Shown here: positions 15,101-58,238 of the stretch, piece after piece
How the letters are laid out: each line of letters opens with the position of its first letter
Position numbering within the stretch: the first letter of the stretch is position 1
IMG/VR virus record: IMGVR_UViG_3300046820_001584
Location: 21,741-85,740 of that record
Strand: one strand, 5' to 3'
DNA from: a virus
DNA: 64,000 nt
Position numbers and translations under genes: made by a program
The notes under the pieces: generated by a model
Told to the model about the DNA's origin: nothing
Databases searched by the model: none
Seen by the model: only the letters and a program-made list of their open reading frames with translations

Positions 15101-18100
15101 TTAACACTTGTTCCAAAGGCGAATAAGGCCATCTCTATTTGTTTTGACGCAGATAGTAGGGCTGCTTGTGTTTTATTTAAAGCTGCATGACCTAATGTGA
15201 GTCCAGGCATATATGGCAAAGAACCTTGTACCCCGTATGTGTTTGTTCTAACACCGCCATTGCCAACTACTGTTGTTTTTGATCCAGTCAATGGGCCAGG
15301 CTTACGCTCTGGTGCTTCTACTGGCGCAGGAACATATGCCGCTGCACGTTCTGCCTTAGCTCTTTCTTGTGCTGCACGAGCCGCAGGATTTCCCTTACGA
15401 CCATAATAATCTTTGCTACGACGAATGATTCCACCAGCTTCAAAACCTGGTATTATCTTTCCGCTTTCAGAAGGACTAAATATTTCTGGGCCTTTTTCTC
15501 CAACAATATAATTTTGTCCTGGAGATACTGGACCGCCCATTTCTCTTTTGCCATCAATACCGAATATTGTTTTCTTAAGTTCTGCAGTAATAGGGGTATC
15601 TTTTTTTGAATCCCAGTTTAGATATTTCTTTCTAAGAATGTCTTTATCAATTGGAGATAGCTGTCTTATAAGATTTCTATCACTAAACAAATCGCTAGCT
15701 GCCGATCTAATAACTGAATCTAATGATGCTGGCTCAAGTGCATTCTTTAAAGAGCCCTTTGCATCTTTAACATAACCGTAAGGCTTTTCTTTTGCTAAAG
15801 CTGCAGCAAATTTATCATAAAGTAGTTTTTGTGTATTTTTTCTTAATCCAGAATTTGCAAACAATTTGTTTGCCATTTCGATTGAAAGTGAATTAACTCC
15901 CCAAGGGGCTGACTCATACATGCTTGGCTTAGGGGCACCAGTAGGACCAAATCCAGCACCTATTCTTCTCATGGCTAATCCCTTTAGCACATTGCCAATT
16001 GATCCACCTCCGTTAAATCCGTTAAGAGGTGTTTTAAATGAATTGTCAGAAAGAGATACTGCGTGTCCTCTTTGTCTAATTCTTAGTTCTGCTTCTTCCT
16101 TTAGCTTTTGAAGTGCGGCTGGGGTAAGAGCCTTTGATTGTGAAACCTTAACTGCAGAATGTATTCCATGGAATTCTTCCCAGTTTACTCTTCTTCCATC
16201 TTCAAGTCTCTTGATCATTGCTGCATATACAGCAGACTCTTCTGTGTTTAATTTACCAAGGGACTTGGCTACTGTTTCTTTAAGTCTAGGTAATACATCA
16301 TCTATCTCATCTATCATAGCCTTATGATATTGTTTTGGAGTCATTCCCTTTGGAATAGCCAATGTAGATTCAGCAAAGAATCTTCTTGCTCCGCCCTTTA
16401 CTCCTAGCAGATTAATATTTGCTTGGTCTTTCATTGAAATCATATTTTCTTCATATGATCTCTTACCAGAAGCTGTCTTAAATACACCAGCAGTACCTAC
16501 GTCATTTAATGTGCTTCCATAAAGGTTATCTGGGCTTAAATCTTTATCACCTCTTAGATTAGCTGCAACTAACTGCTTGAAATAATCTTTCTTTGTAAAT
16601 TCTCCAGATGCTTTTGCAAATGCTTCATCATAAGGAGACTCTAGAACTAATAGTTTTCTTCTACCTGCTGGATCGGTAGGATCAATCATTGTTCTAATTT
16701 CTTGCTTAGGGGCATTTAGTCCATGTGCCTCTCTAGCAATAATAGTAGCCCTTTGTTCTGCAAGTGCTGCGGTTTCATCCATTACTGGTTTAACAAATAC
16801 TCTTGTGCCATCTGCTTTTTCATATAAACCGCCAATACCTGGAACTGGGAAACTTCTTCCTGTTGATGGAGAAATTAACTTACCAAAATCTGTTACAGGC
16901 ATTCCTGCAAATCTACTGGTTTGTACTCCAGAATTAATTTCTTCCATGGTAAGTCTAGCTTTTCTTTGTAGTTCTACATCTTTAAATCTTTTTGGTATCC
17001 CAAGGAACAATGGTCTGCCATATGAGCGCTTGCCCTTTGTAACAGTACCACCAATCATTCCGCCAGCATTTTTTCTTTCTACTACATTTCTTTTTAAAAG
17101 CTTTAATTTAGCTGCAGATCCTCCTGCAGCAACAATGCTTGAATCAATAAATGGAATAAATGAATCGAAAGTTATATCTCCCTTCTCATCTCCAATTTTC
17201 TTTGACTCTTTGCCCTTTAATGATGCAGCAATTTTTGCATCAATTTCTCTTTCAGTATCTGCCCACTTTGATCTGTGAACTCCTGAACGTTGCATTATAG
17301 TATCGTATTTGCCAGTACGAGACATATTTCTTTCTAAGAAATTTTTAGCAATTAGTGTACCGTGGTTTGCTTGCAGATTAGATCTTGAATCATAATCAAC
17401 TGTGTACTTGCTAACAAATCTTCTGCCATTTCTTACTGATGCTCTGGTTAAATGTGTAGCATGAGTTACTCTTTCAAGATCCAAGGCTGGTAGCTTATTT
17501 TTTGCTAACAGTTTATCCAATGCTCCGCCACGCTCTAAATGGCCTGGCTCAATTGTAAATGTATCTCTTGCAAATCCCTTGTCCATTCCGCCTCTTCCAG
17601 TTCGTATAGAACCAGAAAAATCTTCTAGCAGGCTGGCTGCTCTTCTTCTTTCTCCAGCAGGCAAAGACCTTATGTAGTCATTAAGTACTGCCCTTGTTGT
17701 TGCTCCTCTAGCTAGCCAAGATCTAGATCCGTAGCCTCCTACGTACTGTGCATCTCTTTCTCTTACGGCTGCTCTTTGTAAATTTCTTTTTTCAGCTAGT
17801 AAAACTAACTGCTTTCTATATGCTGTTCTATTTGATGTAAATAGTCCTCTTATTATTGCGGCAGATGGAGGAACTAATCCATAGCTAGATCTAGAAAGCG
17901 TAATATTTCCACCAGCCATATTTGCCTGAAGAGGAGTTCCATTATTTGCAGCATCTACTGCTCTAAATAATTCTGGATTATTTTGTATGCCTGGGCCAAA
18001 TACTGTTTCTTGTGGAGTAAGCAATGCTGTTATATTGCTGCCAGATTTTTTATGTGTTGAAGGTGCGGCTGCAACAAGTGCTGCGTTTCTTGGATCTAGC

Positions 18101-28253: not shown

Positions 28254-29837
28254 TTAGTCAACCTTTTTGCCATCTCCTTTTGCATTTCTGCCTTCCCCGA
28301 CTTTATCGGAAGAAGCGGCAGATCTGGCAGAATCTCTAGCCCTAGTTTTTCCAGCAGTTGCTTTTTGATCGGCAGCTTGCTGTGGCTTTAATTCAACCAT
28401 TTCATCTCCGCCATCTACAGGAATCATTCCCTTTCTGATTCTAACTTCATTTGGGGTAATTACCTGCATTCTTAAATATCTTTCGTCTATTTGTGACTGG
28501 GTATCTTCATCAGTCAAAGTTAGCTCTTCGAATTTAATTTTTAATGCATCTGTCTTTTCTTCAATTATTGAATTAATTCTTTTTTCAAGTCTCATCTGAG
28601 CTGGACGACAAACCTGCTCTTTGAATGTTTTGTCTGCGTCTCTAGCATTTGCAAGAGATACGCCTTCTGGAACACCAATTTTATTAATTGGAACTCTATG
28701 TGCTAATAAGATTTCATCTCTATTAGACTGTCTATAAATATTAAATGATGACTCTTGAGCACCAGCTTCAACTGGCTCCATTTTAAACTCAACTTTATTA
28801 TCTTGAGTGTCGGCTGGTAGAGGGATATATAGTGATCTGTGGTTCTTTCCTTTTAATCCAACCTGGAAAAACTCAAGCAATTTTCTTTCTGACTCTGGAG
28901 AAAGCTTTGCTCCCTTAACTGTAATAATATATCTTGGGACCGCCTTATTCTCAAAGTAGTCTAGGTTATATCTACCAGCAAATTCATTTCCAGCAAGTGA
29001 CATCTGGGCTGCTACAATATCTGGAATGCCATAGTAATTATTCATCGGAGTATACTTCTTTAAATGAATAATTTCATTTGGACGATCTTCCATATCTCCA
29101 ATTGGGTTTACTGTTTCTGTATCTCCAAAGTTTCTAAAGAATACCGCCTTGCCGTAAAGCAATTGCATAAATCCATCTCTAAGTCTTCTTACACGCATTG
29201 TCTTAGCTGGTATGTGACCAATATATCCAATGTCTCCGCCTGTAGTTCTACCAATTTCAAGGTAACCGTTACCAGTTGCCTCCAGATCCGTATAAACCTT
29301 TATCAAGGTTTCAGTAAATGTATCCTCATCGTTTGTTGCGTCTAGCCAATCTTGAAGATCTTGCTTTAACTTATTTAATTTTCTACGAGCTCTGTCTAGC
29401 TGCTTGTCATCTGTTATTGCATCAATAGCATCATTTGTTTTTCTGGTTTCCATAAAAGAATACCCAAGGCCAACAATGTTTGCAACCTTAGCATTAATAG
29501 CTGCGTAGTTGTATGTTGAAACTTCATATATTTGAGATAGGTATTCTAGATTATATACTGGTTGTACAAGATCAAACATTGCATATCCAGTGACTGCTGA
29601 TTGCAATAGGTTCTGCTGTGTTCCTGCTCCGTCTTTACCAGTAAATGATTTTGCAAAATCTCTATTTACTTTTCTTTTAAAATTTGTTCCTAGACCTCTT
29701 ACTTTTTTAAGGTCATCAATACCGATGGCAAATGGGTCTACGTGTTCTTTTTCTTTCTTAAATGAGAATAGGTCTGAGCTATTTTTAACAGATACTTCGT
29801 ATGTATCTTCTGGTCCGTCTTCTAAAAATTGTGTCAT
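28254..29837 (-). CDS. portal protein
   Basis: TGNGYLEI, YYGIPD, YFENKAVP, HRVP..IG, TPNEVR motifs of HK97/PBSX-type portals. Confidence 0.9.
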   Translation of the reverse strand: MTQFLEDGPEDTYEVSVKNSSDLFSFKKEKEHVDPFAIGIDDLKKVRGLGTNFKRKVNRDFAKSFTGKDGAGTQQNLLQSAVTGYAMFDLVQPVYNLEYLSQIYEVSTYNYAAINAKVANIVGLGYSFMETRKTNDAIDAITDDKQLDRARRKLNKLKQDLQDWLDATNDEDTFTETLIKVYTDLEATGNGYLEIGRTTGGDIGYIGHIPAKTMRVRRLRDGFMQLLYGKAVFFRNFGDTETVNPIGDMEDRPNEIIHLKKYTPMNNYYGIPDIVAAQMSLAGNEFAGRYNLDYFENKAVPRYIITVKGAKLSPESERKLLEFFQVGLKGKNHRSLYIPLPADTQDNKVEFKMEPVEAGAQESSFNIYRQSNRDEILLAHRVPINKIGVPEGVSLANARDADKTFKEQVCRPAQMRLEKRINSIIEEKTDALKIKFEELTLTDEDTQSQIDERYLRMQVITPNEVRIRKGMIPVDGGDEMVELKPQQAADQKATAGKTRARDSARSAASSDKVGEGRNAKGDGKKVD

Positions 29838-30253: not shown

Positions 30254-32059
30254 CTAGTTGTCAAAAGATCTAACAAAATACGCCGTATTGTCCTGACCAG
30301 TAGCACTTTCTTGAAAAGTTACGCCTGGGTCTTGGACAGATATTGAGTTGTCTGAACAATATAACTTGTAGTTTTTTAATGCTTCTGAGGCTGTAAATGC
30401 TTGTTGGTAGAAAGCAATGTTGCTGTAAACATTTGATCCGCCATAATTGAGTTCATCTTGACTTTGATTAATTTTAATCCCTGTTGCTGCGGCATTTAAA
30501 ACCACAATAACATGGTGAGCTACACCGCCTAATAAAAATTGGGATACGTTTGTTGAAGAAGTCCTATTAACTCCATTTACGTATATTGCACTAATTCCAG
30601 TTTTAGATATAGATCCATTAGCCGCCCAGCTTAATTGGGCAGAAGTAGAAGAAAACAAAACATTTTTACCAGGCTCTGGAGTAAAAAACATCTCTACTGT
30701 TCTTGGCTGTATTGCTAGATCAACAGAGAATCCGTGTCCTGAGTACATAGAAAGCCCATTATATTTATTTTGCATTCTTACTGGATAATTATAATATCCC
30801 AAAGAGAAGTCGTAGTCTGAGTATATTTTGCCGCCAGCATTATCAGAATAAAAATCTTTATTAGAATATAGGTCTATCTCTAGTCTATCAAAATAAGGCA
30901 AGTCAAAAGAGGAGTCTTCAGTAGACATTGTAATTCTTATGTCTAGTATGGGGCCAGATAAATTTTCATTTTTATTAAAGTACGGTAAGGGAGAATTGTT
31001 TTTACAAGGCTTCCATTGTTCTCCAGGAACTTTAACCTCTACCAAAATATTTTCTACATCTTGTCCGTAAGATATTCTAGATGAAACAATACTTTCTGGA
31101 TTTGGCACATAAAGCCTATCTTCAAATACAAAAGTTTTTTCTTCTGGTAACTGTGTCTGTGCAAATTCTATTCTTTGATACACTGGATTATAGTAAGCAT
31201 CACCTGAAACTATTTTGTCTAAAGAATTTGCTCCAGGATATCTAAAAGATACTGCTGGCTTTATAAATACAGAGTTTAGTGAAAAAAACGTACCTTCTTG
31301 TGAATAAACAATTTGTGAGTATTTAGTTTCTTTGTATCCAGCTGCATAATGATTTAGTATTTTTGAATCATCTAGCTCGTATTTATAGATTGCCGCTGAA
31401 TCTACTAAAAATCTTTTCCCTATGTTTGCTGGGCCTATTTTTAAACTAATGTCTTCGTTTATAAACTTAAAGCCATCTGAAATAAGTTTTTCAGAAGCTA
31501 AGACTCCATCTACATAAAGGGCTAATCTATTTTTAGAAAATACTCCAACTAAATGCATTACTTTGTTTCTAGATACTTTGTGCCATACTGTTTTCTGATC
31601 AGTGCATTTAAATATTACATTTTCATTTTTGTAAAATAGACCTATTTTGTTTAGAGAGTCTCCAAGTATCATATATTCATTTAAGTCAGAAGAGTCTGGC
31701 TTAAACCATATTTCAAATGAAAATGGGCTGTCTGGATTTTTAGATGTGGCAACTCCAAGTGCCTTTAGAGATAGATCTACATTGTCATTAATTTCAGTTC
31801 CTCTAACTCCCGCTCCAACTATTGGAAGCACTTCCATGTCAGAAGAATCTAGTGCATATCCTTCCATTGCATTTCCAGAATAATCTATTATTGGAAGCCC
31901 AGATATAGCTGCATATGAAACGCCATTATCTCTTAGATCTGCATAGGTTGCATATAATGTAGTTAAATTGCTGTAAACGCCAGCTTCTCCAGAACGAACT
32001 TCATCTAGCAAAAAAAATGCAAGTGGGTTATCTTTTAAGACAGTGTATTTATATGACAT
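30254..32059 (-). CDS. LamG/concanavalin-A-like virion protein
   Basis: DNPLAFFLLDE, FSFEIWF, HLVGVFS...LYVDG. Confidence 0.75.
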   Translation of the reverse strand: MSYKYTVLKDNPLAFFLLDEVRSGEAGVYSNLTTLYATYADLRDNGVSYAAISGLPIIDYSGNAMEGYALDSSDMEVLPIVGAGVRGTEINDNVDLSLKALGVATSKNPDSPFSFEIWFKPDSSDLNEYMILGDSLNKIGLFYKNENVIFKCTDQKTVWHKVSRNKVMHLVGVFSKNRLALYVDGVLASEKLISDGFKFINEDISLKIGPANIGKRFLVDSAAIYKYELDDSKILNHYAAGYKETKYSQIVYSQEGTFFSLNSVFIKPAVSFRYPGANSLDKIVSGDAYYNPVYQRIEFAQTQLPEEKTFVFEDRLYVPNPESIVSSRISYGQDVENILVEVKVPGEQWKPCKNNSPLPYFNKNENLSGPILDIRITMSTEDSSFDLPYFDRLEIDLYSNKDFYSDNAGGKIYSDYDFSLGYYNYPVRMQNKYNGLSMYSGHGFSVDLAIQPRTVEMFFTPEPGKNVLFSSTSAQLSWAANGSISKTGISAIYVNGVNRTSSTNVSQFLLGGVAHHVIVVLNAAATGIKINQSQDELNYGGSNVYSNIAFYQQAFTASEALKNYKLYCSDNSISVQDPGVTFQESATGQDNTAYFVRSFDN

Positions 32060-32062
32060 GTC

Positions 32063-33175
32063 TTACTTCTCTTCTAGTGCTTTAACTCTCGCTGTAAGCT
32101 CTTGTACTGCTTTAATTAATGGAGCAATAAATTGGTCATATCTAAGTCCCTGCATAGAGTCTTCTTCTGACATATCCATTTTTACCCAGCCTGCAAAATC
32201 TGCAACTCCAGACTCATCTAAAACTGTTTTTACTTCTTGTGCAATAAGTCCATAGTGGGTTCTTGATCCAGGAATTGAAACAATATCTCCGTCTACTATT
32301 TCTTTTCCGCCTTCAATAAACTTATAGCTTACTGGATTTAGATTATTAATAAAATTAAGGCCTAGTTGAGATGATGTAATGTCAGTCTTTAGTCTTTGAT
32401 CTGATGTATTAATAGTTCCAGTGTTTGAGTATATTGTTTTCCAAAATCTATTTGAGCTAACTCCATTAGGAACGTCTGTTGGCTGACCAAGATTATAAAG
32501 GTTGTTTGCAATTGGATACCAGTTAGAGTTTACGCCAAATCCTGCTGAGGTTGGTATATTTAAACTTATTGTTGTTGGCACTGGATCTATAGTTGCGCTT
32601 GATCCAGGAATTCCTTGTGGTCCCGTGGCACCCGTGGCACCCGTGGCACCTCTTGGAATTGTAAATGCAAAAACGGCATTTGCAGACGTGCCAGTGTTGG
32701 TTACAGAAGCGCTTGTTCCAGCTGCACCTGTTGTAGTAGTTCCAATAGCTAGAGTGGTTGGACCCTGCGGGCCAGCGGGCCCTTGCGGACCCTGTGGACC
32801 TTGTGGTAAAACTAGATTTAATGTTTGCGATGGGCTGGTGCCAGTTATTGTTGCATTAGCTGAAGCTCCGCCAACAACGGTACCTATATTTAAAACATTA
32901 GAAGGGCCAGGCCCACCAATAATTCCATCAATACCTCTAGGCAATGTTAAGTTTAATATAGCATTAGAAGATGTTCCAACATTTGTAACTGCTGCTGGAG
33001 TACTTGCGCTAACGGTGGTTACTGTACCTATTGCTAAGGTGCCTGAAGGGCCCTGTGGGCCTGGATTAGCAGCAATGAAGGTTGCAATGTCAGCACCAAG
33101 GTTTCCAAGGTCTCTAGGGACGTCTGGGGTGTCTGTATAGTCTGGAAATCTCCAGCCGTTTACTCCTGTGCTCAT
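32063..33175 (-). CDS. collagen-like fiber protein with C-terminal S74-like chaperone
   Basis: GPQGPQGPAGPQGP and GATGATGATGPQG; TSDQRLK...GLIAQEV...LRYDQFIAPLIKAVQEL. Confidence 0.8.
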   Translation of the reverse strand: MSTGVNGWRFPDYTDTPDVPRDLGNLGADIATFIAANPGPQGPSGTLAIGTVTTVSASTPAAVTNVGTSSNAILNLTLPRGIDGIIGGPGPSNVLNIGTVVGGASANATITGTSPSQTLNLVLPQGPQGPQGPAGPQGPTTLAIGTTTTGAAGTSASVTNTGTSANAVFAFTIPRGATGATGATGPQGIPGSSATIDPVPTTISLNIPTSAGFGVNSNWYPIANNLYNLGQPTDVPNGVSSNRFWKTIYSNTGTINTSDQRLKTDITSSQLGLNFINNLNPVSYKFIEGGKEIVDGDIVSIPGSRTHYGLIAQEVKTVLDESGVADFAGWVKMDMSEEDSMQGLRYDQFIAPLIKAVQELTARVKALEEK

Positions 33176-33195
33176 TTTTTTATTATACCACCGAT

Positions 33196-33846
33196 CTACT
33201 TAATATATACGTGTGCTGGGCTCATATATCTGGTGCCAGAAATAATTGGCTTTACTTCATGAATATATGGCTCCTGCGAAGGAAACATTATCATGCTTCC
33301 AGCCTTTGGCTTAACGGTAACATTGTGATTTGGAAAGCTAATTTCTCCGCCTTCGTAGTCGTCGTTTATATATGCTACCAAAGAAAATGCTAGATCTGCA
33401 TTACCATCTTGTCCGTCAAAATGTGGACCCATAGACTGTCCTTCATTCCAAGCCTTAATAGTGGTGTTATCTAAATTTAAATTATATTTACTTTTATCTA
33501 GCTTGTGTCCTTCTAGGTATCTATCGGTACACATTTCAAATGCCATTAGAAAGCTATTTGCTATATACAAAGTTTTTTTATCTACCACATCTGATCCAGT
33601 AGATTCTTTTAACTTAGACTTATTAATATTTTTCGTTTTCCCGTAAATTAATTCTTTGTCGTCGCTTGCTGTCCAATTTTCCCATTTAGATATTCTAGAA
33701 TAAGACTGTGGCTCTTCATCAATTTTGTCAATAAATACTTTTAGCTCTTCTGGAAAACTTAATGCATTTTCCCAGTACCAAATTTGTGGTCCAAGAACCT
33801 TAAGGTCAAACATTATAAATTGTTTAAACTCAATATTGTTTTGCAT
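33196..33846 (-). CDS. 2OG-Fe(II) oxygenase (P4H-like)
   Basis: HFD, YINDDYEGGEI, HEV..IISGTRY. Confidence 0.88.
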   Translation of the reverse strand: MQNNIEFKQFIMFDLKVLGPQIWYWENALSFPEELKVFIDKIDEEPQSYSRISKWENWTASDDKELIYGKTKNINKSKLKESTGSDVVDKKTLYIANSFLMAFEMCTDRYLEGHKLDKSKYNLNLDNTTIKAWNEGQSMGPHFDGQDGNADLAFSLVAYINDDYEGGEISFPNHNVTVKPKAGSMIMFPSQEPYIHEVKPIISGTRYMSPAHVYIK

Positions 33847-34595
33847 TATTCTACTTCCTTGGCTGGATATTTTTCTCCAGTTGCAGTAATACGTAGTCCT
33901 TGATTACGAATTTCTTCCCATTCGACAGCTTCTGTTTTTTGATATGCTCTTACTTCAGCAAGCTCAGCTGCCCAAGCGTCTCTTACTTCTTGTGGATAGT
34001 CTGATTCTTCTCTGTCATCCCAAAAAGATCCAAGGGTATATCTAATTGCTTTCTTTACGGTTGTAACTTCATGAGTATTTTCAAATCCACCCGCAAATGT
34101 AGCCATGCTTCCAGTCTTTGGAATAATTGTTAATCCGTGCTTAAAATTTAAAACTCCGTCTTCAAAGTCATCATTTAAGTAAATAAATGTTGCGTATCTG
34201 CTTCTTGTAAATGCACCAGAGTTTCCGTCATTGTCTGTGTTATCTGAATGCATATTTGCAAATGCGCCAGGTGCCCATCTCTGAGAGTGCCAACTAATTT
34301 GTGACATTTGCTCAGGATTTTTACCAGCCATATCGGCTGTTGCGTCAATTACTCTTTGTCTTAGTACTTGAAAAAAATCTCCTGGCAATCCGCAAGCAAT
34401 TGTATCTGGATCATTGACTTCTGGCATACCAGATGAATATGATTCATAGAAAGAAATAGGCATCCACTTCAATTCTTCTTTTTGCATTTTTATGTCTAGG
34501 ACTTTAATAATTGCAGCGCACTCTTCTGGAGTCAAGAAATTGTCATATACAACTATATCTGATTTATGTCTTGTTACAACCATGTCTCTTTCCAT
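33846..34595 (-). CDS. 2OG-Fe(II) oxygenase (P4H-like)
   Basis: HSD, YLNDDFEDG, HEV.....IRY. Confidence 0.88.
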   Translation of the reverse strand: MERDMVVTRHKSDIVVYDNFLTPEECAAIIKVLDIKMQKEELKWMPISFYESYSSGMPEVNDPDTIACGLPGDFFQVLRQRVIDATADMAGKNPEQMSQISWHSQRWAPGAFANMHSDNTDNDGNSGAFTRSRYATFIYLNDDFEDGVLNFKHGLTIIPKTGSMATFAGGFENTHEVTTVKKAIRYTLGSFWDDREESDYPQEVRDAWAAELAEVRAYQKTEAVEWEEIRNQGLRITATGEKYPAKEVE

Positions 34596-35410
34596 TATTC
34601 ATTTTCTCCCTTTATATTAGCAAGATCATCGTAAAGTGTTGGTACACCATTTTCCAAATATCTCATGTTTCTTGGATCTTCGTATTTAATTCTTTCCGCT
34701 TCCATTTGAGCCCATTTATATGCACCATAAGTTTTTTGATTATTTAGCCATTCTTTTGTTCCATCGAACGGTGTCATAACAAAGTTTCTTACAAAAAACT
34801 TTTCGTTATTTTCAATAGTTTTAACTCCGTGGTAGTATGGCTCTGTAGATGGAAATACTAAAATATCTCCAGAAACTGGCTTATGATTAATAAGCTTGCC
34901 GTCTACAAAAAATTCAATATCTCCTCCATCATAATCGTCATTTATATACATAGTACATGTTATTGAAAACTTGTCTCCAGGCATATCTTTTTGAGACGTT
35001 ATGTGGTCTGTATGATACTGCATTGTCATTTTATTATCTAGAGTGTTAATTTGTGGATTATACTTTGAATAAGAGCATCCGCTAAATCTCCAGCCTTCTG
35101 GCAAATCAATATTGTGTCTTTCTACGTAGTCCATTAAAACTGCATGATAGGCAGCCTCAACTTCTTCTACAAAATTCTTTTCTTTAATAAACATTTCATC
35201 TGACTGCTGATCATCAGATATCTCCATTGGATTCTTTTTTTGTGTATAAGTGCCAAAGTGTGCCCATGGATCCCATGTCTTTAAAAAATGCTTGCCCTCT
35301 GAAGTTTTTTCAGACTCTTTCATTACTTCGTACATTTTTTGTGGATCAGTAAGAACATCTCTGTAAACTTCTACATTTGGATAAATCTCTATATAGTTTA
35401 ATTTGCTCAT
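34595..35410 (-). CDS. 2OG-Fe(II) oxygenase (P4H-like)
   Basis: HTD, YINDDYDGGDI, HGV......K. Confidence 0.85.
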   Translation of the reverse strand: MSKLNYIEIYPNVEVYRDVLTDPQKMYEVMKESEKTSEGKHFLKTWDPWAHFGTYTQKKNPMEISDDQQSDEMFIKEKNFVEEVEAAYHAVLMDYVERHNIDLPEGWRFSGCSYSKYNPQINTLDNKMTMQYHTDHITSQKDMPGDKFSITCTMYINDDYDGGDIEFFVDGKLINHKPVSGDILVFPSTEPYYHGVKTIENNEKFFVRNFVMTPFDGTKEWLNNQKTYGAYKWAQMEAERIKYEDPRNMRYLENGVPTLYDDLANIKGENE

Positions 35411-36081
35411 GGTTGTCTTTCTCCTGTATGCTTAGATATCGTCCAAAAGAATGGAGATGTAAATCGATTGCCAGATTTTACTGGTCTTACCCCGTGAGTA
35501 TAATACATGTCTCCTGGGAAAAAATATGCTGCTCCTGCAACTGGCTGAAATTCAATTCCATGTTGTGGGAAATAAAGCTCTCCACCTTCATAGTCATCGT
35601 TAAAATAAAAAAGTCCTGCTAAATCGTACCAAGGGAAATCATTTGGTCTGCCTTTTTCTGGGCCAGAATGAAATTCTTTATCTGCATGAGGTTCTTGTCT
35701 TGCGCCAATTGGCCATTTAACAATTGCTGGACCAGTTTCTTTTGCATCAACGTCAAAAAATTTATCTACTTCGATCTTTAGTCTGTCAATCATGCTGTAA
35801 ATAAGTTCTAATATTGTTGGGTCTGAAGCCCGTAAAGAATTTATAGTGCATACTCTGTCTTCCCAAACTTTATGGTCATACAGCACAAGCCCGTCTTCGT
35901 CAACGTGTGTTTCTGTCACATCCCAAATTTTATTAGAAAGGGCAAAATCCATTAATCTTTTTCTTTCTTCTAATGAAAGAAAGTCTTTAATTTCTACAAT
36001 GTTATCTATGGAATTGCCAAAAAATCCAGAGGGTGTAATAGATACTGGTCTGTTGTCATGCCATTCGTTTTGAGGTTTCAT
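35407..36081 (-). CDS. 2OG-Fe(II) oxygenase (P4H-like)
   Basis: HAD, YFNDDYEGGEL, HGV.PVKSGNR. Confidence 0.88.
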   Translation of the reverse strand: MKPQNEWHDNRPVSITPSGFFGNSIDNIVEIKDFLSLEERKRLMDFALSNKIWDVTETHVDEDGLVLYDHKVWEDRVCTINSLRASDPTILELIYSMIDRLKIEVDKFFDVDAKETGPAIVKWPIGARQEPHADKEFHSGPEKGRPNDFPWYDLAGLFYFNDDYEGGELYFPQHGIEFQPVAGAAYFFPGDMYYTHGVRPVKSGNRFTSPFFWTISKHTGERQP

Positions 36082-36132
36082 TTTATCTTCTTCCCTTGGT
36101 AATTAATTTTACCATATTGTCGTTTATAATCT

Positions 36133-36843
36133 TTATTCTTCTTTATTCTTTTGGTTTACGCTTAGTCTTAATGCTTTTACCTGATGCTTGCCGATGGCAT
36201 TTTTTAAATGATCTACCGCATCTCTGTAGAAATTAGACCATACTCCAGACCTATTTAAATCGTAAATTATCTCAGAATATTTGTCTGAATCAAACTGGCT
36301 AGCTGGCATAGTAGACATTGGCTCAAAATTTATTTCTGACCCTTGAAGTGAGGCTAAGTCAATTGGCAAGATGGCTATAATTGGAGTTCCAGCCTTTATT
36401 GTTAAAATTTCATTTGGCTTAGTAATCATCCAGGCTACTGGAAGCTCACCTCTAAAAAAAGAAGTACTAATTAAAGTTGTAAATGGCACAGCGCCATCAA
36501 AAAAGAAATTTGGAACTGGCATAGAAAGAAGACTTAAGTTTTCTTCTGTTTTAAACATAAGCCCAGTATTAAAGCTTATAGTGCCATTTGCTCTTCCTGA
36601 ATATGCATACTTTTCGCCAGATAAAATTTTAACATGATCTGGACTTGCATCGCTTACTCCATCCCAAATAAAGCTTATGTCTTCTGGGAATGATATAGCC
36701 CATCCAAGCTGGTTTGTTAATCCCACTGGAAAACATTTATATGCATGTGCTTCCCAGGTGTCGTCCATCCATTTTCTTTTTATGGAAAGAGGTTCGACTA
36801 TTCCGTATCCGTCTCTTATTTCCCAAGCCTTTATATTATGCAT
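36133..36843 (-). CDS. DUF6065-like protein
   Basis: R.WMD...HAYKCFP...NQLGW...WDG pattern recalled for DUF6065; embedded in the oxygenase cluster. Confidence 0.65.
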   Translation of the reverse strand: MHNIKAWEIRDGYGIVEPLSIKRKWMDDTWEAHAYKCFPVGLTNQLGWAISFPEDISFIWDGVSDASPDHVKILSGEKYAYSGRANGTISFNTGLMFKTEENLSLLSMPVPNFFFDGAVPFTTLISTSFFRGELPVAWMITKPNEILTIKAGTPIIAILPIDLASLQGSEINFEPMSTMPASQFDSDKYSEIIYDLNRSGVWSNFYRDAVDHLKNAIGKHQVKALRLSVNQKNKEE

Positions 36844-37549
36844 ATGGGTTTTTGCCAGTTTTGGCGTCTTCCTCTACCCACTTAGATCTCATTTCCATAA
36901 ACTCTTGTCTGTGTTGATGATCGTTATAATCTAGCATTGTAACAATTGAAAATTTCATTCCAGATTTTACTGGCATTGCTCTATGAGAGAATAAATATGT
37001 TGATGGGAATATGTATAGGTCTCCAGCTTGTGGCTTAATGTCAAGACCTATCTTTGGAAAATATAAATTCCCGCCTTCATAATCATCGTTAACGTAAGCT
37101 ACAAGGGAGACGGTGGCGCTGTAAGAAAATCCATGATCTGCGTGTTCTTGAAAGTGTTGACCTTCCCCATAACGAATACAGTTCATAACTTCCCAGTAAT
37201 TCATTTTTACGTTGTGTTTCGAACAATAATCTTCTACTGCTGGATTTTGAGACTTTTTTAGGTCTTGCCATAAACTAGAAACTAATTTTTCTGTTTCTGT
37301 TCTTGGGTTTGGAATGTCTCCAACTTTAATGTCTTCACAATCTCTATAGTCTGGTCTTTTTTCGCTGTATCCAACAAAACCAAATGTCCATAAAAATCTA
37401 GAGTCGTTGTCTTTAATTGCCGACTCACCAATTTCATTAAGTCTTTCAATAACATTTAACTCTTTTTTAATTGCATTTCTATAAACCCAAACTCCTGGGA
37501 AAAGCTCTTCTTTTGAAGAAAATTTATATTTATCATTAATGTTATTCAT
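36836..37549 (-). CDS. 2OG-Fe(II) oxygenase (P4H-like)
   Basis: HAD, YVNDDYEGGNL, HRAMPVKSGMK. Confidence 0.88.
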   Translation of the reverse strand: MNNINDKYKFSSKEELFPGVWVYRNAIKKELNVIERLNEIGESAIKDNDSRFLWTFGFVGYSEKRPDYRDCEDIKVGDIPNPRTETEKLVSSLWQDLKKSQNPAVEDYCSKHNVKMNYWEVMNCIRYGEGQHFQEHADHGFSYSATVSLVAYVNDDYEGGNLYFPKIGLDIKPQAGDLYIFPSTYLFSHRAMPVKSGMKFSIVTMLDYNDHQHRQEFMEMRSKWVEEDAKTGKNPYA

Positions 37550-37556
37550 AATATTT

Positions 37557-37586
37557 ATTATAGCATTTAAAAATTCATATTGTCAA
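37557..37586 (-). promoter_or_regulatory. leaderless promoter of the oxygenase cluster
   Basis: TTGACA-N18-TATAAT with extended TG; ATG 7 nt after the -10. Confidence 0.65.
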
Positions 37587-37614
37587 TAAGAAAGGGAGCA
37601 GATTGACTGCTCCC
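37586..37614 (-). terminator. intrinsic terminator after the Hint-domain gene
   Basis: GGGAGCAG-tcaat-CTGCTCCC followed by TTTCTTATT on the minus strand. Confidence 0.65.
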
Positions 37615-37635
37615 TCTCTTATTTTACGCTTATTT

Positions 37636-38976
37636 CTAGTTTCTAATTATGAACGATTGTCCTAGAACTAGAACGTCTGGGTCAGTGAAGAATCTATATA
37701 CTATAGAGGCATCTTCTACTGTATCAATTGACTCTACTGCTAAGTACTTAATATCTTCGTCAGATCTATAAACTATCTGATCTCCAATTTGCATATCCGC
37801 TGGGGTTACAAATTTATAAGTATTTCCTCTAAGTGCTAGAATTTCTTCTTGCAACGAGAATCTTGCAGTGGCATCATTATTAACCATGAATGTCTTGTTT
37901 TGCAATGTGGCTTGTATTGAGAATATCTTTGACTCAATTACCTTTGAATTACCAAGATGTGTATCTTCCCATGTTGCTGGGTCGTACTCACCTTCATTTG
38001 GCAACTTATCAAATGATAAGCTTATTAGAATATCTCCAATTTTTATATCTTTAGCCATCTTGTAGCCTGTAGATGTAAGTATTAAAGTGTCTTCATTTAT
38101 GCAACCAAATCTTGGCGGTGCAAAGAAGCCAGGTGGGAAGAACGGTGGCGCAAAGAAGTTAGGTGGGAAGAACGGTGGGAAGAATGGTGGGAAGAACGGT
38201 GGGAAGAACGGTGGCGCAAAGAAGTTAGGTGGGAAGAACGGTGGCGCAAAGAAGCCAGGTGGGAAGAACGGTGGCGCAAAGAATGCGGGTGGGAAGAACG
38301 GTGGCGCAAAGAAGCCAGGTGGGAAGAACGGTGGCGCAAAGAAGCCAGGTGGGAAGAACGGTGGGAAGAACGGTGCCTGAGTTGTAATAGTTGCTGTATT
38401 AGCTGAGGCTGCTGAACGTCCATTAGCATTGTCTGCATAAACATTGTAATACTGTGATGTATTAGCGGCGTCATCAATTGTTGTAGATAACCCTGTTACA
38501 TTGTCTCTGCTTGTTCCATCATTACCAGCTACAAAATACTTGGTGATTGCTTTTCCACCATTTGCTGGAGCTGCCCATGAAATTGTATTCTGGTTAACGC
38601 CTGGAGTTGCTGATGGGCTTGTTGGAGCACTTGGAACTGTTGTTGCTGTAACAGCAGAAGCTGCTACTGCATTTGAATTGCTATCAAGGAAGCCATCATA
38701 AGATGATACTGAGAAAGTATAAGATGTTCCTCCTGATAATCCAGTTATTGTAGCGGTATTTGTGCCAAATGCAACTGTAGCTTTTACTGTTGCGCCGTCA
38801 TATACCTTGTAACCAGTTGGCGTATTACCATCAACTGGTGCTGTCCAAGATACTGTTACAGCACCGTCATTAAATGCTCTGTTGGTACCAATATCAGATG
38901 CCGTGACACCTGTTACTGGATTTGGTCCAATAAAGTTATCTTGGGCGGAAGATTTTCTACCTATATTTTTTGACAT
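37636..38976 (-). CDS. FN3-FN3-(Pro/Phe repeat)-Hint domain protein
   Basis: Two FN3-like repeats; about 88 aa of PPFF/PPxFFA repeats; then G-CINEDTLI...IKIGD...VYRF...IIRN-stop, a Hint-like domain. Confidence 0.8.
   Translation of the reverse strand: MSKNIGRKSSAQDNFIGPNPVTGVTASDIGTNRAFNDGAVTVSWTAPVDGNTPTGYKVYDGATVKATVAFGTNTATITGLSGGTSYTFSVSSYDGFLDSNSNAVAASAVTATTVPSAPTSPSATPGVNQNTISWAAPANGGKAITKYFVAGNDGTSRDNVTGLSTTIDDAANTSQYYNVYADNANGRSAASANTATITTQAPFFPPFFPPGFFAPPFFPPGFFAPPFFPPAFFAPPFFPPGFFAPPFFPPNFFAPPFFPPFFPPFFPPFFPPNFFAPPFFPPGFFAPPRFGCINEDTLILTSTGYKMAKDIKIGDILISLSFDKLPNEGEYDPATWEDTHLGNSKVIESKIFSIQATLQNKTFMVNNDATARFSLQEEILALRGNTYKFVTPADMQIGDQIVYRSDEDIKYLAVESIDTVEDASIVYRFFTDPDVLVLGQSFIIRN
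38113..38376 (-). repeat. coding tandem repeat (30-nt and 12-nt units) encoding APPFFPP(G/A/N)FF and PPFF
   Basis: Plus-strand unit GGTGGGAAGAACGGTGGCGCAAAGAAGCCA repeated with variants. Confidence 0.95.
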
Positions 38977-38996: not shown

Positions 38997-41477
38997 TTAC
39001 GCTTTCAAGTCTCCAGCTAACAACCAAGTTGTTGCTGCGACTTTTGTGGCTGTCACTGATGAGTTTGTTGTTCTAAGTGTTGCACCTGGTGTTGCAAGAA
39101 TTGTAACTCCAGATCCAGTTATGTTAGCACCAGTACCTGATGACTGGTAGAAGTTAATTGAAGAACCAATTGCATACTTAGCATTTCCTGTTGCTTCAAA
39201 GCTTACGTTTACTGCTCCTGATAGAGGGACCAATGAGTCTCTTACTGCGGCATCTGTTCCAAGTGCATCTAATGTTGAGTTAGATGAAACAGCTGTTGCT
39301 ATTGTTGTAAGTGATGGTACACCAGCCCGTGTTTGAACCTTATCTGTAAATGCTACTCCAGCTGCTGCAACTGTTACTGTTCCAGTAAATGTTGGGCTAG
39401 CGATTGGTGCCTTTGCTGCAAGTCCAGTTGTAACTGTTGAAGCAAAGTTTGCGTCATCACCGAGTGCTGCTGCAAGTTCGTCAAGGGTATTGAGTGCTGC
39501 TGGGGCTGATGCAATTACTGCATTTACCTGAGCTGTTGCATCTGCAATAGCCTCTGACTTAGCAGTTGCAATTGCTGAAGCCTGTGCTGTAGATACTGGC
39601 TTAGCTGAGTCTGCTGTATTATTAACATTTGCAAGTCCTACTGAAGACTTTGTAAGTGCTGCTACCGCAGTTGAAACCTTTGTATCTGCTGCTGTTCCAG
39701 CTGCAGTAATAGCTTCTGACTTAGCAGTTGCTACATTTGCTGTAGTTGCTAGAAGTGAAGTATCTGCAATGCCGTGAATGTTTGTTGTATCTGATTCGTG
39801 ATTTGAAAGTGCTGTAGCTGCTGAACCAAATTGTGACTGCACAGAAGATGAAATTCCATCAAGATAACCTAGTTCTGTTGAGCTAAGATTTCCAATTGAT
39901 GTTGTGCTTGGTAGCACTACTGTTCCTGTAAATGTTGGACCATCTAATGGGGCAAGGGCTGTTAGTGAAGCTCCTAGTCCGTCAATTTTACTTTGAGCAA
40001 TTGCTGCGGTAGGGCTAATGTCTGCGTTTACAATTGTTTCATTTGTAATTTTATCAGATGTAATTGCTCCATTTATAATGTTTACTGTATTTATTGAGTT
40101 AGCTGCAACCTTTGCAGCAGTTACTGATGAGTCAGCAATCTTTGCAGTGCTAACTGCGCTGTCGGCAATCTTTCCATTTGATACTGATAAAGCTGCAATT
40201 TTGGCTTCAGTTACAGCATTTGTTGCAATCTTAGATGAAGTTACAGCATCTTCTGCAATCTTCTCTGTAGTGACTGCAAGTCCACCAATTTCATTTGTTC
40301 CAACAGAATCATCAGAAAGATGAGACTGGGAAATTGAATTAGCTGCAATCTTTTCTGCAGTAACTGCATTGAGTGCAATTTTAGCTGTAGTGACTGCATT
40401 TGGAGCAATCTCAGACTCTCCAACTGCATTGTCTGAAATCTTAGCGGCTGTAATTGAGTTGTCTGCAATCTTGGCTGCTGTTACTGCATTTTCTGCAAGA
40501 TTTGCTGCAACAATTGATCCGTTTGGCAAAACTATTGTTCCAGTTAATGTTGGGTTATTTAGAACAGATTCTGTTGACTCTAATCTTCCAACTGCTATGG
40601 CATCTAATGATCCCTGTGTAAAATCAACTGTGGTTGTAGGCTCTGTTGTAACTCCCTTAAATAACTTCCACTTGTCTTCTGAAGCATCACGCACAAATCC
40701 AGTGTGATTAAATGTTCCAGTGTTATGACCAGCAACAAAACCTAAGTCAAGCATTCCCGACTGGTTTGCTTTTGCCATAAGAAGCATTGTGTCTTCAATC
40801 GCAAAGTTTTCGGTGTTAATTGTTGTCATTGTTCCATTGACTGCAAGATTACCGCTAATTGTAACATCCTTAGCAAATAAGTCTCCAGTTGTTGAAATGT
40901 CTGTAGTAAGAGAGCCTAGTGGCAACTCTGACTGTAAAATTTTAGTATTTGAATCTAACGAAGCAACTCCGCCTGCAGTTCCTCTATCTCCTGTTTCTAG
41001 GTATCCTGATAGTGAGCTGTTTAATCCGCTTACTGCAGTGTCAGTGTAATCTTCTGCAGCAGATATTGCTGCAGCCTGTGCTGCATTTGCTTTAGTAGTT
41101 GCATCTGACGCAGCTGCTGCGATTGCTTCTGATTTAGCATTTGCTGCTTTAGTGTTTGCTTCTGATGTAGCAAATGTTTTTGTTGAAACTACATCTGTGT
41201 CTACAGTTATAGTAATTGTATTTGCACCATCGTTATAAGTCTTTGTTAAACCTGCGCCCATTGTTAAGGCTGTGTTAATTGCATCTTGGGAAATTTCACC
41301 AATTGCTACATCTGAGTTGTTGGCATATGCTAGGGCTGTCCATGTAGCTGTTCCATTACCAAACTTAAATAAATTAGTGTTTGTTTCAACACCCATTTCA
41401 CCTGCAGCTAATACTGGATTTGCTGTGGTCCATTCAGAGGCTGTACCTCTTCTTACTTGAATTCTTACTGTTGACAT
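38997..41477 (-). CDS. fiber protein with Mtd-N-like N-terminus and 10-aa VTxAKIA repeats
   Basis: RIQVRRGTASEWTTANPVLAAGEMGVET; (AVTxAKIAxN)n; APAALNTLDELAAALGDD. Confidence 0.75.
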   Translation of the reverse strand: MSTVRIQVRRGTASEWTTANPVLAAGEMGVETNTNLFKFGNGTATWTALAYANNSDVAIGEISQDAINTALTMGAGLTKTYNDGANTITITVDTDVVSTKTFATSEANTKAANAKSEAIAAAASDATTKANAAQAAAISAAEDYTDTAVSGLNSSLSGYLETGDRGTAGGVASLDSNTKILQSELPLGSLTTDISTTGDLFAKDVTISGNLAVNGTMTTINTENFAIEDTMLLMAKANQSGMLDLGFVAGHNTGTFNHTGFVRDASEDKWKLFKGVTTEPTTTVDFTQGSLDAIAVGRLESTESVLNNPTLTGTIVLPNGSIVAANLAENAVTAAKIADNSITAAKISDNAVGESEIAPNAVTTAKIALNAVTAEKIAANSISQSHLSDDSVGTNEIGGLAVTTEKIAEDAVTSSKIATNAVTEAKIAALSVSNGKIADSAVSTAKIADSSVTAAKVAANSINTVNIINGAITSDKITNETIVNADISPTAAIAQSKIDGLGASLTALAPLDGPTFTGTVVLPSTTSIGNLSSTELGYLDGISSSVQSQFGSAATALSNHESDTTNIHGIADTSLLATTANVATAKSEAITAAGTAADTKVSTAVAALTKSSVGLANVNNTADSAKPVSTAQASAIATAKSEAIADATAQVNAVIASAPAALNTLDELAAALGDDANFASTVTTGLAAKAPIASPTFTGTVTVAAAGVAFTDKVQTRAGVPSLTTIATAVSSNSTLDALGTDAAVRDSLVPLSGAVNVSFEATGNAKYAIGSSINFYQSSGTGANITGSGVTILATPGATLRTTNSSVTATKVAATTWLLAGDLKA

Positions 41478-44768: not shown

Positions 44769-44808
44769 AATACATTATATCCTTTTGTTTGCAAAATTGT
44801 CAATACCA

Positions 44809-54750: not shown

Positions 54751-54891
54751 ATGGTTCATCATTTTGCAAAGTGGATGGCTAGTCCACAATTTAAAAGTCC
54801 CCAGATTTGTAACGGGTCTTGCAAACACGAAGAAGCAAAAAAAGAAAACTCAATTTTTGAAAAACTATTAAAGAAGGTTGGTAAGAAATAA
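54751..54891 (+). CDS. small hypothetical protein (not in ORF track)
   Basis: MVHHFAKWMASPQFKSPQICNGSCKH..., 46 aa; TGCTATAAT upstream; TAATG coupling to the oxygenase. Confidence 0.55.
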   Translation: MVHHFAKWMASPQFKSPQICNGSCKHEEAKKENSIFEKLLKKVGKK

Positions 54892-55751
54892 TGTTTTATG
54901 ACAGAGAAGATTGTACACGACTTTCATTTTTCCCAGATGATTATGGAACACCTAGCGGAGTATTTTTATTTAAGGGATTCTATACTGATGAAGAGTGCAA
55001 AATTGTAGAAGACGCACTTAAAGAATACAAGTATGACGATGTCTACGAACAAACATTAATTAGCTGGTATGCGGATAAGCTTTCTCCACCAATTCGTGGT
55101 CTACACAAGCTTTGGGAAAAGGCTAGCGACCTATTGTATCCAGAATATGTTATCCACCCACAAAACAACGTATTAGTTATAAGTGAGCATATGAAGCAAG
55201 GTATGTTTACTCACTCAGACTCTCCAGGAAAAGGCGAATGCCACAGACTTTCACAGGTAGATGTATGGAAAACTTGCTGCGAATTAGATTACGGCCTAGT
55301 TGCTTATTTTGGAGACTTTGAAGGCGGAGAAATCTTCTATGTAAACATTAATGAAGATGGATCTAAAAAGGACCCAGATGTTAACTCAAAGATACTAGAA
55401 TTTAAGCCAGAAAGAGGAGACTTGGTCGTTCATGGCGCATTCTCCCCACATACACATGGAGTTAAAGAAGTAACAAAGGGTGTTAGATATGCTTTTTCAA
55501 ACTTTGTTTTAAAGGCAGAAGATAACCCAGGAACTTTTTACAACTACAAGACTCCAGAGTATTATGAGCAGATTAAAGATGTCGATACAGACTTTGAAAA
55601 ATTTCAACACACCTGGATGCAGCCACTCAAGCAAAATCCACAGTTTACAGATGAAAGAATCAAAATGTTACAGGCTTCTGGACTAGAGGGAGTAGAATTA
55701 GCAAATGCATTTCCTTTTGATCATGACGAAGTAAATGCCAAAACCGTTTGA
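54891..55751 (+). CDS. 2OG-Fe(II) oxygenase
   Basis: HSD, FEGGEIFY, HGVKEVTKGVRY. Confidence 0.85.
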   Translation: MFYDREDCTRLSFFPDDYGTPSGVFLFKGFYTDEECKIVEDALKEYKYDDVYEQTLISWYADKLSPPIRGLHKLWEKASDLLYPEYVIHPQNNVLVISEHMKQGMFTHSDSPGKGECHRLSQVDVWKTCCELDYGLVAYFGDFEGGEIFYVNINEDGSKKDPDVNSKILEFKPERGDLVVHGAFSPHTHGVKEVTKGVRYAFSNFVLKAEDNPGTFYNYKTPEYYEQIKDVDTDFEKFQHTWMQPLKQNPQFTDERIKMLQASGLEGVELANAFPFDHDEVNAKTV

Positions 55752-58145: not shown

Positions 58146-58163
58146 ATTAATATTATACCATTG

Positions 58164-58238
58164 TAGGGATACTGGGATTTGAACCCAGACTCTATTGTAT
58201 ATAAGACAAGTGCTTTAACCAGATTAAGCTATATCCCC
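58164..58238 (-). tRNA. tRNA-Ile (anticodon UAU)
   Basis: GGGGATA/TATCCCT acceptor, D arm GCTT..AAGC, anticodon loop CT-TAT-AT, T arm CTGGG-TTCAAAT-CCCAG; 3' ACAA, no encoded CCA. Confidence 0.85.

Follow-up and report, generated by a model that had tools for sequence, protein, structure and literature searches.

A conserved phage fibre-region cassette joins a Pro/Phe-repeat protein to five predicted P4H-family oxygenases and a DUF6065 protein

To our knowledge, few 'auxiliary' genes are more common in aquatic phages than those for 2-oxoglutarate/Fe(II)-dependent (2OG/Fe(II)) oxygenases, and next to nothing is known of what these enzymes act on. One virus-encoded member, the prolyl 4-hydroxylase (P4H) of PBCV-1, hydroxylates Pro-rich peptides in vitro. 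Judging from the available portions of the papers that describe them, this enzyme and the tandem dioxygenase array of phage Syn9 have both gone unexplained since their description (PMC2938197, PMC7019647). Here we analyze a comparable locus in a 64,000-nucleotide stretch of viral DNA (the window; positions 21,741 to 85,740 of IMG/VR record IMGVR_UViG_3300046820_001584), and all positions below are those of the window. At 32063-38976, with every gene on the minus strand, a gene for a protein with a long Pro/Phe tract, here called PFH, is followed by five oxygenase genes (Ox1 to Ox5), a DUF6065 gene and a collagen-like fibre gene. This cassette is real, conserved and abundant. It is a variant of phage dioxygenase arrays and of the virus P4H that occurs with Pro-rich repeats, and it offers a new, well-defined candidate substrate.

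The locus is a conserved fibre-region cassette of an abundant uncultured siphophage lineage (about 110 kb). The abundance follows from the 1700 DUF6065-family proteins found at E ≤0.001 in the protein collection, on contigs of up to ~120 kb; the best 120 of the 1700 are all at least 56% identical. A preliminary description of this DNA, drawn from its letters alone, had placed the genes at the same coordinates and held that the Pro/Phe tract is the dedicated substrate of the oxygenases. This is the reading that we favour, at a probability a little below even. The P4H type of the enzymes, their synteny with PFH and their co-loss with the repeat support it, whereas the co-loss amounts to a single event, the genes occupy a cargo-like slot and the Syn9 array lacks the repeat. 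The features on which the argument turns are listed here.

37636-38976, minus strand: PFH, 446 aa, with an FN3 domain, a second FN3-like region, a (PPxFF)n tract and a C-terminal Hint/bacterial intein-like (BIL)-type domain (open reading frame (ORF) call, Pfam fn3, 74 related viral loci).
38692-38871, minus strand: FN3 domain, PFH residues 36-95 (PF00041).
38104-38376, minus strand: Pro/Phe tract, PFH residues 201-291, a hypervariable tandem DNA repeat (composition and Tandem Repeats Finder, TRF).
37639-38103, minus strand: Hint/BIL-type domain, PFH residues 292-446, with the Cys292 codon at 38101-38103 (alignment of 22 homologous domains, profile matches).
37593-37615, minus strand: terminator-like hairpin after the PFH stop, a 9-bp stem followed by TTCTTATT on the minus strand.
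37557-37586, minus strand: sigma-70-type consensus promoter 5' of Ox1, TTGACA-N18-TATAAT with TG (12/12 match).
36836-37549, minus strand: Ox1, P4H-like 2OG/Fe(II) oxygenase with H136, D138, H189 and K199 (PF13640, 51.8 bits).
36133-36843, minus strand: DUF6065 protein with an invariant Cys37, its start overlapping the end of Ox1 (PF19541, 101.4 bits).
35407-36081, minus strand: Ox2, with H132, D134, H196 and R206 (PF13640, 32.0 bits).
34595-35410, minus strand: Ox3, with H133, D135, H194 and K204 (PF13640, 34.6 bits).
33846-34595, minus strand: Ox4, with H116, D118, H175 and R185 (PF13640, 32.1 bits).
33196-33846, minus strand: Ox5, with H142, D144, H196 and R206 (PF13640, 46.1 bits).

The five mutually divergent oxygenases with intact triads, the DUF6065-like gene and the terminator and separate promoter between repeat gene and oxygenases, all named in the preliminary description, were each recovered. 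All five oxygenase scores exceed the PF13640 gathering cut-off of 27 bits, and the DUF6065 score lies well above its own cut-off of 26.6. Ox2 to Ox5 are 23-29% identical to Ox1, and every copy carries the H-x-D...H triad with a Lys or Arg ten residues past the distal His. In collagen P4H the Lys at this +10 position binds the C5 carboxylate of 2OG. The four catalytic residues are invariant in 64/64 orthologues of Ox1, 63/63 of Ox2 and 62/62 of Ox4; in Ox3 the H, D and H are kept in 62/62 with Lys in 61 and Arg in 1, and in Ox5 the H, D and H are kept in 53/53. Across the five sets of orthologues, the only exchange at the +10 position is between Lys and Arg. The nearest solved relative of Ox1 is the P4H of B. 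anthracis (PDB 3itq/5hv0, 5e-6). Ox5 matches 3dkq, 5c5t (the PBCV-1 P4H, E 1.3e-3) and LH3. Lysyl and prolyl-3 hydroxylases are also among the solved structures matched by the enzymes. Together, these data support the prediction that Ox1 to Ox5 are catalytically intact P4H-family 2OG oxygenases.

Gene order was compared across relatives collected with two queries. PFH recovered 74 viral loci, 69 with a Pro-Pro type of repeat and 5 with an FG type, and DUF6065 recovered 204 relatives. From the latter, the 80 best loci were retained, 72 of them new. Ox1 and DUF6065 follow PFH in all 65 Pro-Pro loci with at least 3 kb of downstream DNA and in the 3 loci with 1.7-2.4 kb; one locus (L058), whose gene lies at the contig end with no downstream DNA, was left out of this count and of the trait tests. 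In the reverse direction, PFH precedes Ox1 in 52/52 of the new loci found with DUF6065 that have 1.3 kb or more of upstream DNA. The other 20 of the 72 have <1.3 kb each and lie outside this count, including two, L142 (805 bp upstream) and L153 (1225 bp), in which there is no PFH fragment. The co-occurrence and synteny of the repeat protein with the oxygenase/DUF6065 set, proposed beforehand as a check, therefore held in both directions.

The pairing was also found in a different context. Two loci (L185:3222-4265 and L186:1733-2776) encode two tandem proteins of 164 and 173 aa, each with one FN3 or FN3-like domain, a Pro/Phe tail (PFFPP, ending ..PPWFP..ATR[NR]) and no Hint domain. Oxygenases, a protein of a family here called A4 and DUF6065 come next, and the upstream genes are unlike those of the window. 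We regard these loci as a second, though homologous, instance of the pairing.

FG-type PFH proteins, with Pro-poor FGFTPFGA repeats, form a clade nested within the Pro-Pro tree (72 rows, 51 of them different; many loci are near-identical). Ox1 and DUF6065 are present in 0/5 FG-type loci and Ox2-4 are absent; a lineage hidden Markov model (HMM) finds 0-2 oxygenases per locus. The basal member of the clade retains 2 oxygenases and 2 weak DUF6065-like genes. The genome annotation of a 70-kb FG-type record holds no PF13640 match, and the HMM finds one divergent member there. The loss of Ox1, DUF6065 and Ox2-4 coincides with the change of repeat, as a single event on the tree. Another family, A5 (~200-240 aa, ending ..NEPG.W.P..), is present as 2-3 tandem paralogues directly after FG-type PFH and as one copy in some Pro-Pro loci (L024:3064-5056, L029:11260-13249, L047:10818-12100, L073:9222-10474, L016:9867-10463). 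A5 has no Pfam or PDB match, and the probability of a link to the oxygenases is 0.06%.

Several observations weigh against the tract as the oxygenase substrate. Since every locus comes from a single phage supergroup, shared ancestry by itself may account for the synteny. The co-variation of repeat type and enzymes comprises one change in each trait and 1 independent pair (sign test p = 1) and, being one event on the tree, carries no statistical weight. The hairpin and the enzymes' own promoter uncouple the enzyme genes from PFH. In relatives, the slot between PFH and the portal gene also holds short-chain dehydrogenase/reductase (SDR) genes (4 loci), a luciferase-like monooxygenase (2 loci), a class II ribonucleotide reductase (RNR), a cobalamin adenosyltransferase, a GNAT-like gene and three unknown families. 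Across the genome, PF13640 is matched 8-9 times, including 3 times among replication/packaging genes, and a 286-aa ORF at 54891-55751 on the plus strand is a weak further candidate (2OG-FeII_Oxy_3, 21.6 bits, below the cut-off of 27). Syn9 lacks an FFxPP tract (3 scattered pattern matches compared with 2 in the control), and Pro is scarce in its fibres (2-5%). Because the Syn9 array, with its DUF6065-like protein, occurs without a Pro/Phe repeat, a dioxygenase array as such is not bound to one. Finally, the published account of PBCV-1 states, in the portion available, that no hydroxyproline was found in its virions (PMC7019647).

These observations favour an alternative in which the oxygenases and DUF6065 form a cargo island and act on host proteins (e.g. 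translation factors), on a small or secondary metabolite or on 2-oxoglutarate, their adjacency to PFH reflecting inherited synteny in a variable slot. Published proposals point the same way: in the sections available, Iyer et al. propose metabolite biosynthesis for the Syn9 array (PMC2938197) and Sullivan et al. propose modulation of 2OG (PMC3037559). We take this alternative seriously but doubt it. It does not readily account for an adjacency that is perfect at every scorable locus, for the loss of Ox1-4 and DUF6065 exactly where the repeat lost its Pro-Pro units or for the recurrence of the cassette with different flanks in L185/L186. In addition, the nearest solved relatives of the enzymes are peptidyl hydroxylases, the enzymes seem to be co-transcribed with structural genes, and these phages encode several Pro-rich repeat proteins.

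In 8 loci, an Asp/Asn beta-hydroxylase and a sulfotransferase (Sulfotransfer_2) are inserted between PFH and Ox1 (L078 (10507-11776), L022, L040, L131, L133, L144, L150 and L154). Such a pair is predicted, in the part of the source available, to hydroxylate and then sulfate collagen-like or tail-collar proteins (PMC2938197).

PFH itself begins with an FN3 domain (Pfam fn3, residues 36-95; 45.6 bits, cut-off 25; E 8.2e-12), which reaches 35.5 bits in a scan of the N-terminal third by itself. The second region, at about residues 100-200, matched nothing in Pfam when scanned alone. A T[VI]SW.AP..G motif is all that the two regions share (BLASTP E 0.004 over 10 aa), and an NCBIfam CbhB match covers residues 33-201. 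Of the two FN3-like domains described previously, the first is therefore confirmed by Pfam, and the second appears FN3-like only by motif. The tract that follows, first put at ~88 aa, measures 91 aa (37 P, 37 F, 9 A, 5 G, 2 N and 1 R; P+F = 81%) and contains 11 FFPP and 7 FF[x]PP units. Its DNA is a tandem array with a period of 30, 5.6 copies and 94% matches (38198-38364, TRF). Homologous tracts are 16-120 aa long, and in two sister sequences they measure 16 aa (L009) and 100 aa (L012).

The same tract occurs in other proteins of these phages. With the Hint domain, it terminates further large fibre-like proteins of relatives, including FN3/Ig arrays, and PFFPP[ST]F runs link globular Cys-containing modules in other proteins of 450-890 aa whose ends resemble phage fibres. 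A region-limited protein search for the tract returned 31 proteins, most with fn3 and none named; the 4 that were inspected are fibre-like, and loci seeded with 2 of these fall in the same supergroup. When PFH was compared with named phages by tblastn, a single record was matched, a phage tail protein whose annotation includes an intein domain. Since identical tracts serve as linkers or tails in other fibre-like proteins, the comparison argues for an exposed structural or adhesive element rather than a precursor of a ribosomally synthesized and post-translationally modified peptide (RiPP). Two side observations concern Pro-rich repeats. Among the large Hint-ended proteins of relatives are Cys-rich ones with repeated WYCTESY..GGG.GNCGY modules and TPPATPP linkers, again with the Pro/Phe tract plus Hint at their ends (L093:1-2190, L103:2-1723, L104:2-2659, L149:3-2486, L015:1-798). 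At the other end of the window's genome (G000:C1:2-2823), a partial 490-aa ORF with a signal-like N-terminus and PQPEPT/PPAEE repeats (15 Pro per 30-aa window) adjoins an SDR-like gene and another 2OG oxygenase, a second pairing of Pro-rich repeat and oxygenase in this genome.

The preliminary description had also raised a RiPP-like layout. On such a reading, the tract would be a multi-core precursor releasing modified, perhaps cyclic, Pro/Phe peptides. A repeated core does adjoin tailoring enzymes, Ox4 faintly resembles the cyclophane-peptide 2OG maturase YhhC, below threshold (16.4 bits, cut-off 150), and a Hint thioester could in principle drive ligation. The comparison does not support this idea, and we consider it very improbable. 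Among the genes at 32063-38976, neither Pfam nor NCBIfam identified a protease, a cyclase or a transporter/exporter. The N-terminus of this 446-aa protein is a conserved FN3 structural module rather than a leader, the tract varies over the full range of lengths between near-identical phages, and the Hint domain is optional, as described below. A resemblance to antamanide and other cyclic peptides was rejected on the same grounds.

The C-terminal domain comprises 155 aa, beginning with Cys292 and ending ..IIRN-stop, with no C-extein. Alone, the window copy reaches no Pfam Hint or intein model. However, a profile of 22 homologous domains matches intein structures and that of a bacterial intein-like domain (9hth 1.8e-7, 2lwy 2e-5, 4e2u 3e-5), family members reach Pfam Intein_splicing (12/22) and Hint_2 (10/22), and intein blocks A, F and G are visible in the alignment. 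The terminal Hint-like domain proposed earlier is thus borne out by the family profile as a divergent Hint/BIL type. Of the 72 tree rows, 29 lack the domain; the tree shows 6 changes, and the enzymes persist in every case. Hint-less PFH proteins stop 7-14 residues past the tract, often with ..R.Y. According to the available part of the literature on BIL domains, a Cys at position 1, clear blocks A, F and G, the lack of a C-extein and a patchy presence among close relatives are hallmarks of this class, whose members auto-cleave at their N- or C-terminus (PMC7765530).

Whether the window copy could cleave was judged from its conserved positions. An N-terminal nucleophile is present (Cys292; Cys or Ser occupies the aligned column in relatives). 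Against cleavage, block B reads S-L-Q-E instead of T-x-x-H; Cys-type relatives have Q or E at the His position, and [ST]-x-x-H is kept by Ser-type relatives only. The window domain also ends in RN and not HN; some relatives end V-H-N-K, and in no relative does a +1 Cys, Ser or Thr extein follow. Because a terminal His-Asn plus +1 nucleophile is missing, the domain is predicted to cleave at most, and not to splice, and its cleavage competence is uncertain because the block-B His and the terminal His-Asn are missing. We give self-cleavage at Gly291|Cys292 slightly better than even chances. In the literature searched, we found no Hint domain behind a Pro/Phe polymer in a phage fibre-region protein; the search for PPFF/FFPP was loosely posed, and among the papers it listed the one that holds PPFF concerns peptide libraries. 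The phiCbK paper has Hint domains only in terminase and RNR inteins, which are irrelevant here.

Downstream of Ox5 and upstream of PFH, the cassette is flanked by further fibre-region genes.

32063-33175, minus strand: collagen-like fibre with a C-terminal S74 intramolecular-chaperone domain (G-X-Y runs, Peptidase_S74 54 bits, PHROG).
30254-32059, minus strand: Laminin_G_3/ConA-like protein between the fibre and the portal block (PF13385, 46.2 bits; syntenic in relatives).
38997-41477, minus strand: Mtd_N-headed fibre protein adjoining PFH upstream (PF18454, 52.3 bits; always precedes PFH in relatives).

The first of these raises a different candidate substrate. The fibre contains GPQGPQGPAGPQGPT and other G-X-Y runs, which confirms the collagen-like (Gly-Pro-X) assignment, and its PHROG matches are to tail fibre and tail spike families. 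If this fibre and other Gly-X-Y tracts were the true substrate, as in collagen/BclA-type systems, PFH would be a bystander. The best solved relatives of the enzymes, the collagen-type P4H of B. anthracis and the lysyl hydroxylase LH3, would agree with such a role, and Ox5 directly precedes the fibre gene. Yet the gene is absent from 15 loci that reach Laminin_G_3 or the portal and keep Ox1-5, and a search of their gene strand turned up no further G-P-X run, apart from regex matches inside PFH. The tract is also short, its longest run having 5 triplets, and prokaryotic collagen-like proteins generally fold without hydroxyproline as far as the available text of one source goes (PMC8968730). The suggestion that the fibre might also be a substrate thus retains its G-P-X runs but is a poorer correlate of the enzymes than the Pro/Phe tract, and we regard the fibre as an unlikely sole target.

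PHROG and Pfam matches indicate a siphophage-type structural region, with a portal (28254-29837), a head protease, a major head protein, tail proteins and several fibre-like genes. The source record is 85.7 kb with an estimated completeness of 80%. On the minus strand, a first unit runs from a consensus promoter (44803-44774) through a 131-aa ORF, p185, an Ala-rich fibre, p120 and the Mtd_N fibre to PFH. After the hairpin, the promoter at 37586-37557 opens a second unit of Ox1, DUF6065, Ox2, Ox3, Ox4 and Ox5, followed on the same strand by the collagen-like S74 fibre, the Laminin_G_3 protein, a 112-aa ORF, the portal and head genes. The hairpin received its scan score on the plus strand, and its palindromic stem can be read on the minus strand too. 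The exact TTGACA-N18-(TG)TATAAT pattern occurs 2 times in the window against 0.12 expected. Its other copy, at 44774-44803 on the minus strand, lies in the gap between a 522-aa ORF and the 131-aa ORF; transcription of the fibre unit, which the hairpin behind PFH closes, would begin there. Between Ox1 and 31900 on the minus strand, the sole terminator-like site is weak, with a 5-bp stem. Elsewhere in the window, a 2934-aa ORF in the tail region (12133-20937, minus strand) is presumably the tape measure, and the single tRNA is a tRNA-Ile with anticodon TAT (58163-58238, minus strand).

Host signals conflict. The portal is 55-59% identical to those of Streptomyces phages, whereas 4 contigs that carry this cluster (L155-L158) come from Bacteroidota metagenome-assembled genome bins, with 2-11 PF13640 matches per bin. 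No WhiB gene was found in the 85.7 kb of the record, GC content is 35-44%, and a megablast of the region against named phages gave no match.

DUF6065 connects the cassette to the Syn9 array through an intermediate family. The DUF6065 profile found nothing significant in the PDB and no link to the oxygenases (hhalign probability 0.3%), tblastn against named phages gave no match, and the word DUF6065 was not found in the literature searched. ESM Atlas returned DUF6065 clusters only, mostly viral. Family A4, a 240-aa protein of relatives, matches both DUF6065 (hhalign 86%, E 5e-6) and Syn9 gp43 (97%, E 1.2e-10), and the aligned regions carry a conserved Cys and a KAGTP motif. A direct comparison of DUF6065 with gp43 is weak (10.8%), the Pfam DUF6065 model has no match in Syn9, and A4 has none in the PDB. 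In Syn9, gp43 sits between two tryptophan halogenases and ten dioxygenase genes, directly past fibre and fibre-assembly genes. We infer that gp43 is the 'dUTPase-fold Cys protein' of Iyer et al. 2010, and DUF6065 probably belongs to the same superfamily.

We propose the following model for the cassette. PFH would be the last gene of the fibre transcription unit and would supply the virion, where we infer it to be located, with an FN3 stalk bearing an expandable aromatic-proline low-complexity (PPxFF)n tail, capped by a Hint/BIL domain in about 60% of relatives. A new transcription unit would then start from the consensus promoter and produce five P4H-family dioxygenases with their conserved-Cys DUF6065 partner. 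This unit appears to continue into the collagen-like fibre, the lectin-fold protein and the head genes, since no strong terminator is seen down to 31900. During virion morphogenesis, the dioxygenases may act on Pro-rich repeats of the phage itself, hydroxylating their prolines and perhaps further residues, with the Pro/Phe tail as the main target and the short Gly-Pro-X fibre tracts as a secondary one. Such hydroxylation could adjust how stiff, soluble or adhesive an exposed appendage is. Where present, the optional Hint domain would cleave itself off at the Gly291-Cys292 bond through an N-S acyl shift at Cys292.

The proposed hydroxylation chemistry is plausible. The reading is favoured by enzymes of peptidyl-hydroxylase type, perfect adjacency, co-loss with the repeat change, the L185/L186 loci, the several Pro-rich repeat proteins and the hydroxylase-sulfotransferase pair. 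An extended form of the model would have the five enzymes and the Cys partner act as a tailoring system that yields a hydroxyproline-rich, extensin-like appendage, with the Hint thioester, in variants that have the domain, covalently ligating the modified tail to a further molecule, for example a virion component or a nucleophile of the host envelope, as Hedgehog does with cholesterol. We consider this extension unlikely.

If the model is correct, phages of bacteria post-translationally hydroxylate their own surface proteins, a role can be assigned to DUF6065 and its Syn9 relative, and a Hint-capped aromatic-proline polymer joins the known building blocks of phage fibres. The tailoring form, if true, would give the numerous orphan 2OG oxygenases of phages their first defined protein substrate and would place a new kind of modified biopolymer on a bacterial virus. 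If instead no hydroxylation occurs, the idea of a cargo island gains, and the targets of the enzymes are to be sought in the host.

Among known systems, the neighbouring fibre offers a functional analogy for the Hint cap. The S74 chaperone of phage fibres is likewise a self-removing C-terminal domain, although its fold and chemistry are unrelated. S74 cleavage uses a Ser-Lys dyad. The Hint domain itself has counterparts in BIL and Hedgehog Hint domains (2lwy). They too form a C-terminal Hint on a variable, non-conserved surface protein, with no C-extein nucleophile, and BIL domains are likewise present or absent between close relatives; the window copy differs in lacking the block-B His, the terminal His-Asn and a sterol-recognition region.

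The enzymes have counterparts in viruses and in bacteria. As in PBCV-1 (5c5t), a virus encodes a P4H-family enzyme in a genome that also contains Pro-rich repeats; PBCV-1 differs in having one enzyme rather than five plus a partner, and in its eukaryotic host. Bacterial beta-hydroxylase/sulfotransferase operons, themselves a published prediction, also place dioxygenases beside a repetitive or fibre-like putative protein substrate, and some relatives of the window carry that very pair. The window lacks both genes, its enzymes are of P4H type (PF13640), and its candidate substrate is a Pro/Phe polymer, not a Gly-rich protein.

The Syn9 array (gp41-gp54), as set out in the available part of Iyer, Abhiman, de Souza and Aravind 2010 (PMC2938197), differs in several respects. 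Syn9 is a T4-like myovirus whose array includes two tryptophan halogenases and a JmjC member, and no tryptophan halogenase or JmjC/MINA member was found among the Pfam matches of the window cluster genes. The Syn9 enzymes also belong to other subfamilies (best score of the lineage oxygenase HMM among 18 proteins, 3e-4). In both phages, however, many divergent 2OG/Fe(II) dioxygenases stand in tandem past tail-fibre genes, and a conserved-Cys protein that is not a dioxygenase accompanies the array; the window has five such dioxygenases and its own conserved-Cys accessory protein. Because A4 joins DUF6065 to gp43, the combination of a DUF6065-like partner with a dioxygenase array appears to span two unrelated phage groups.

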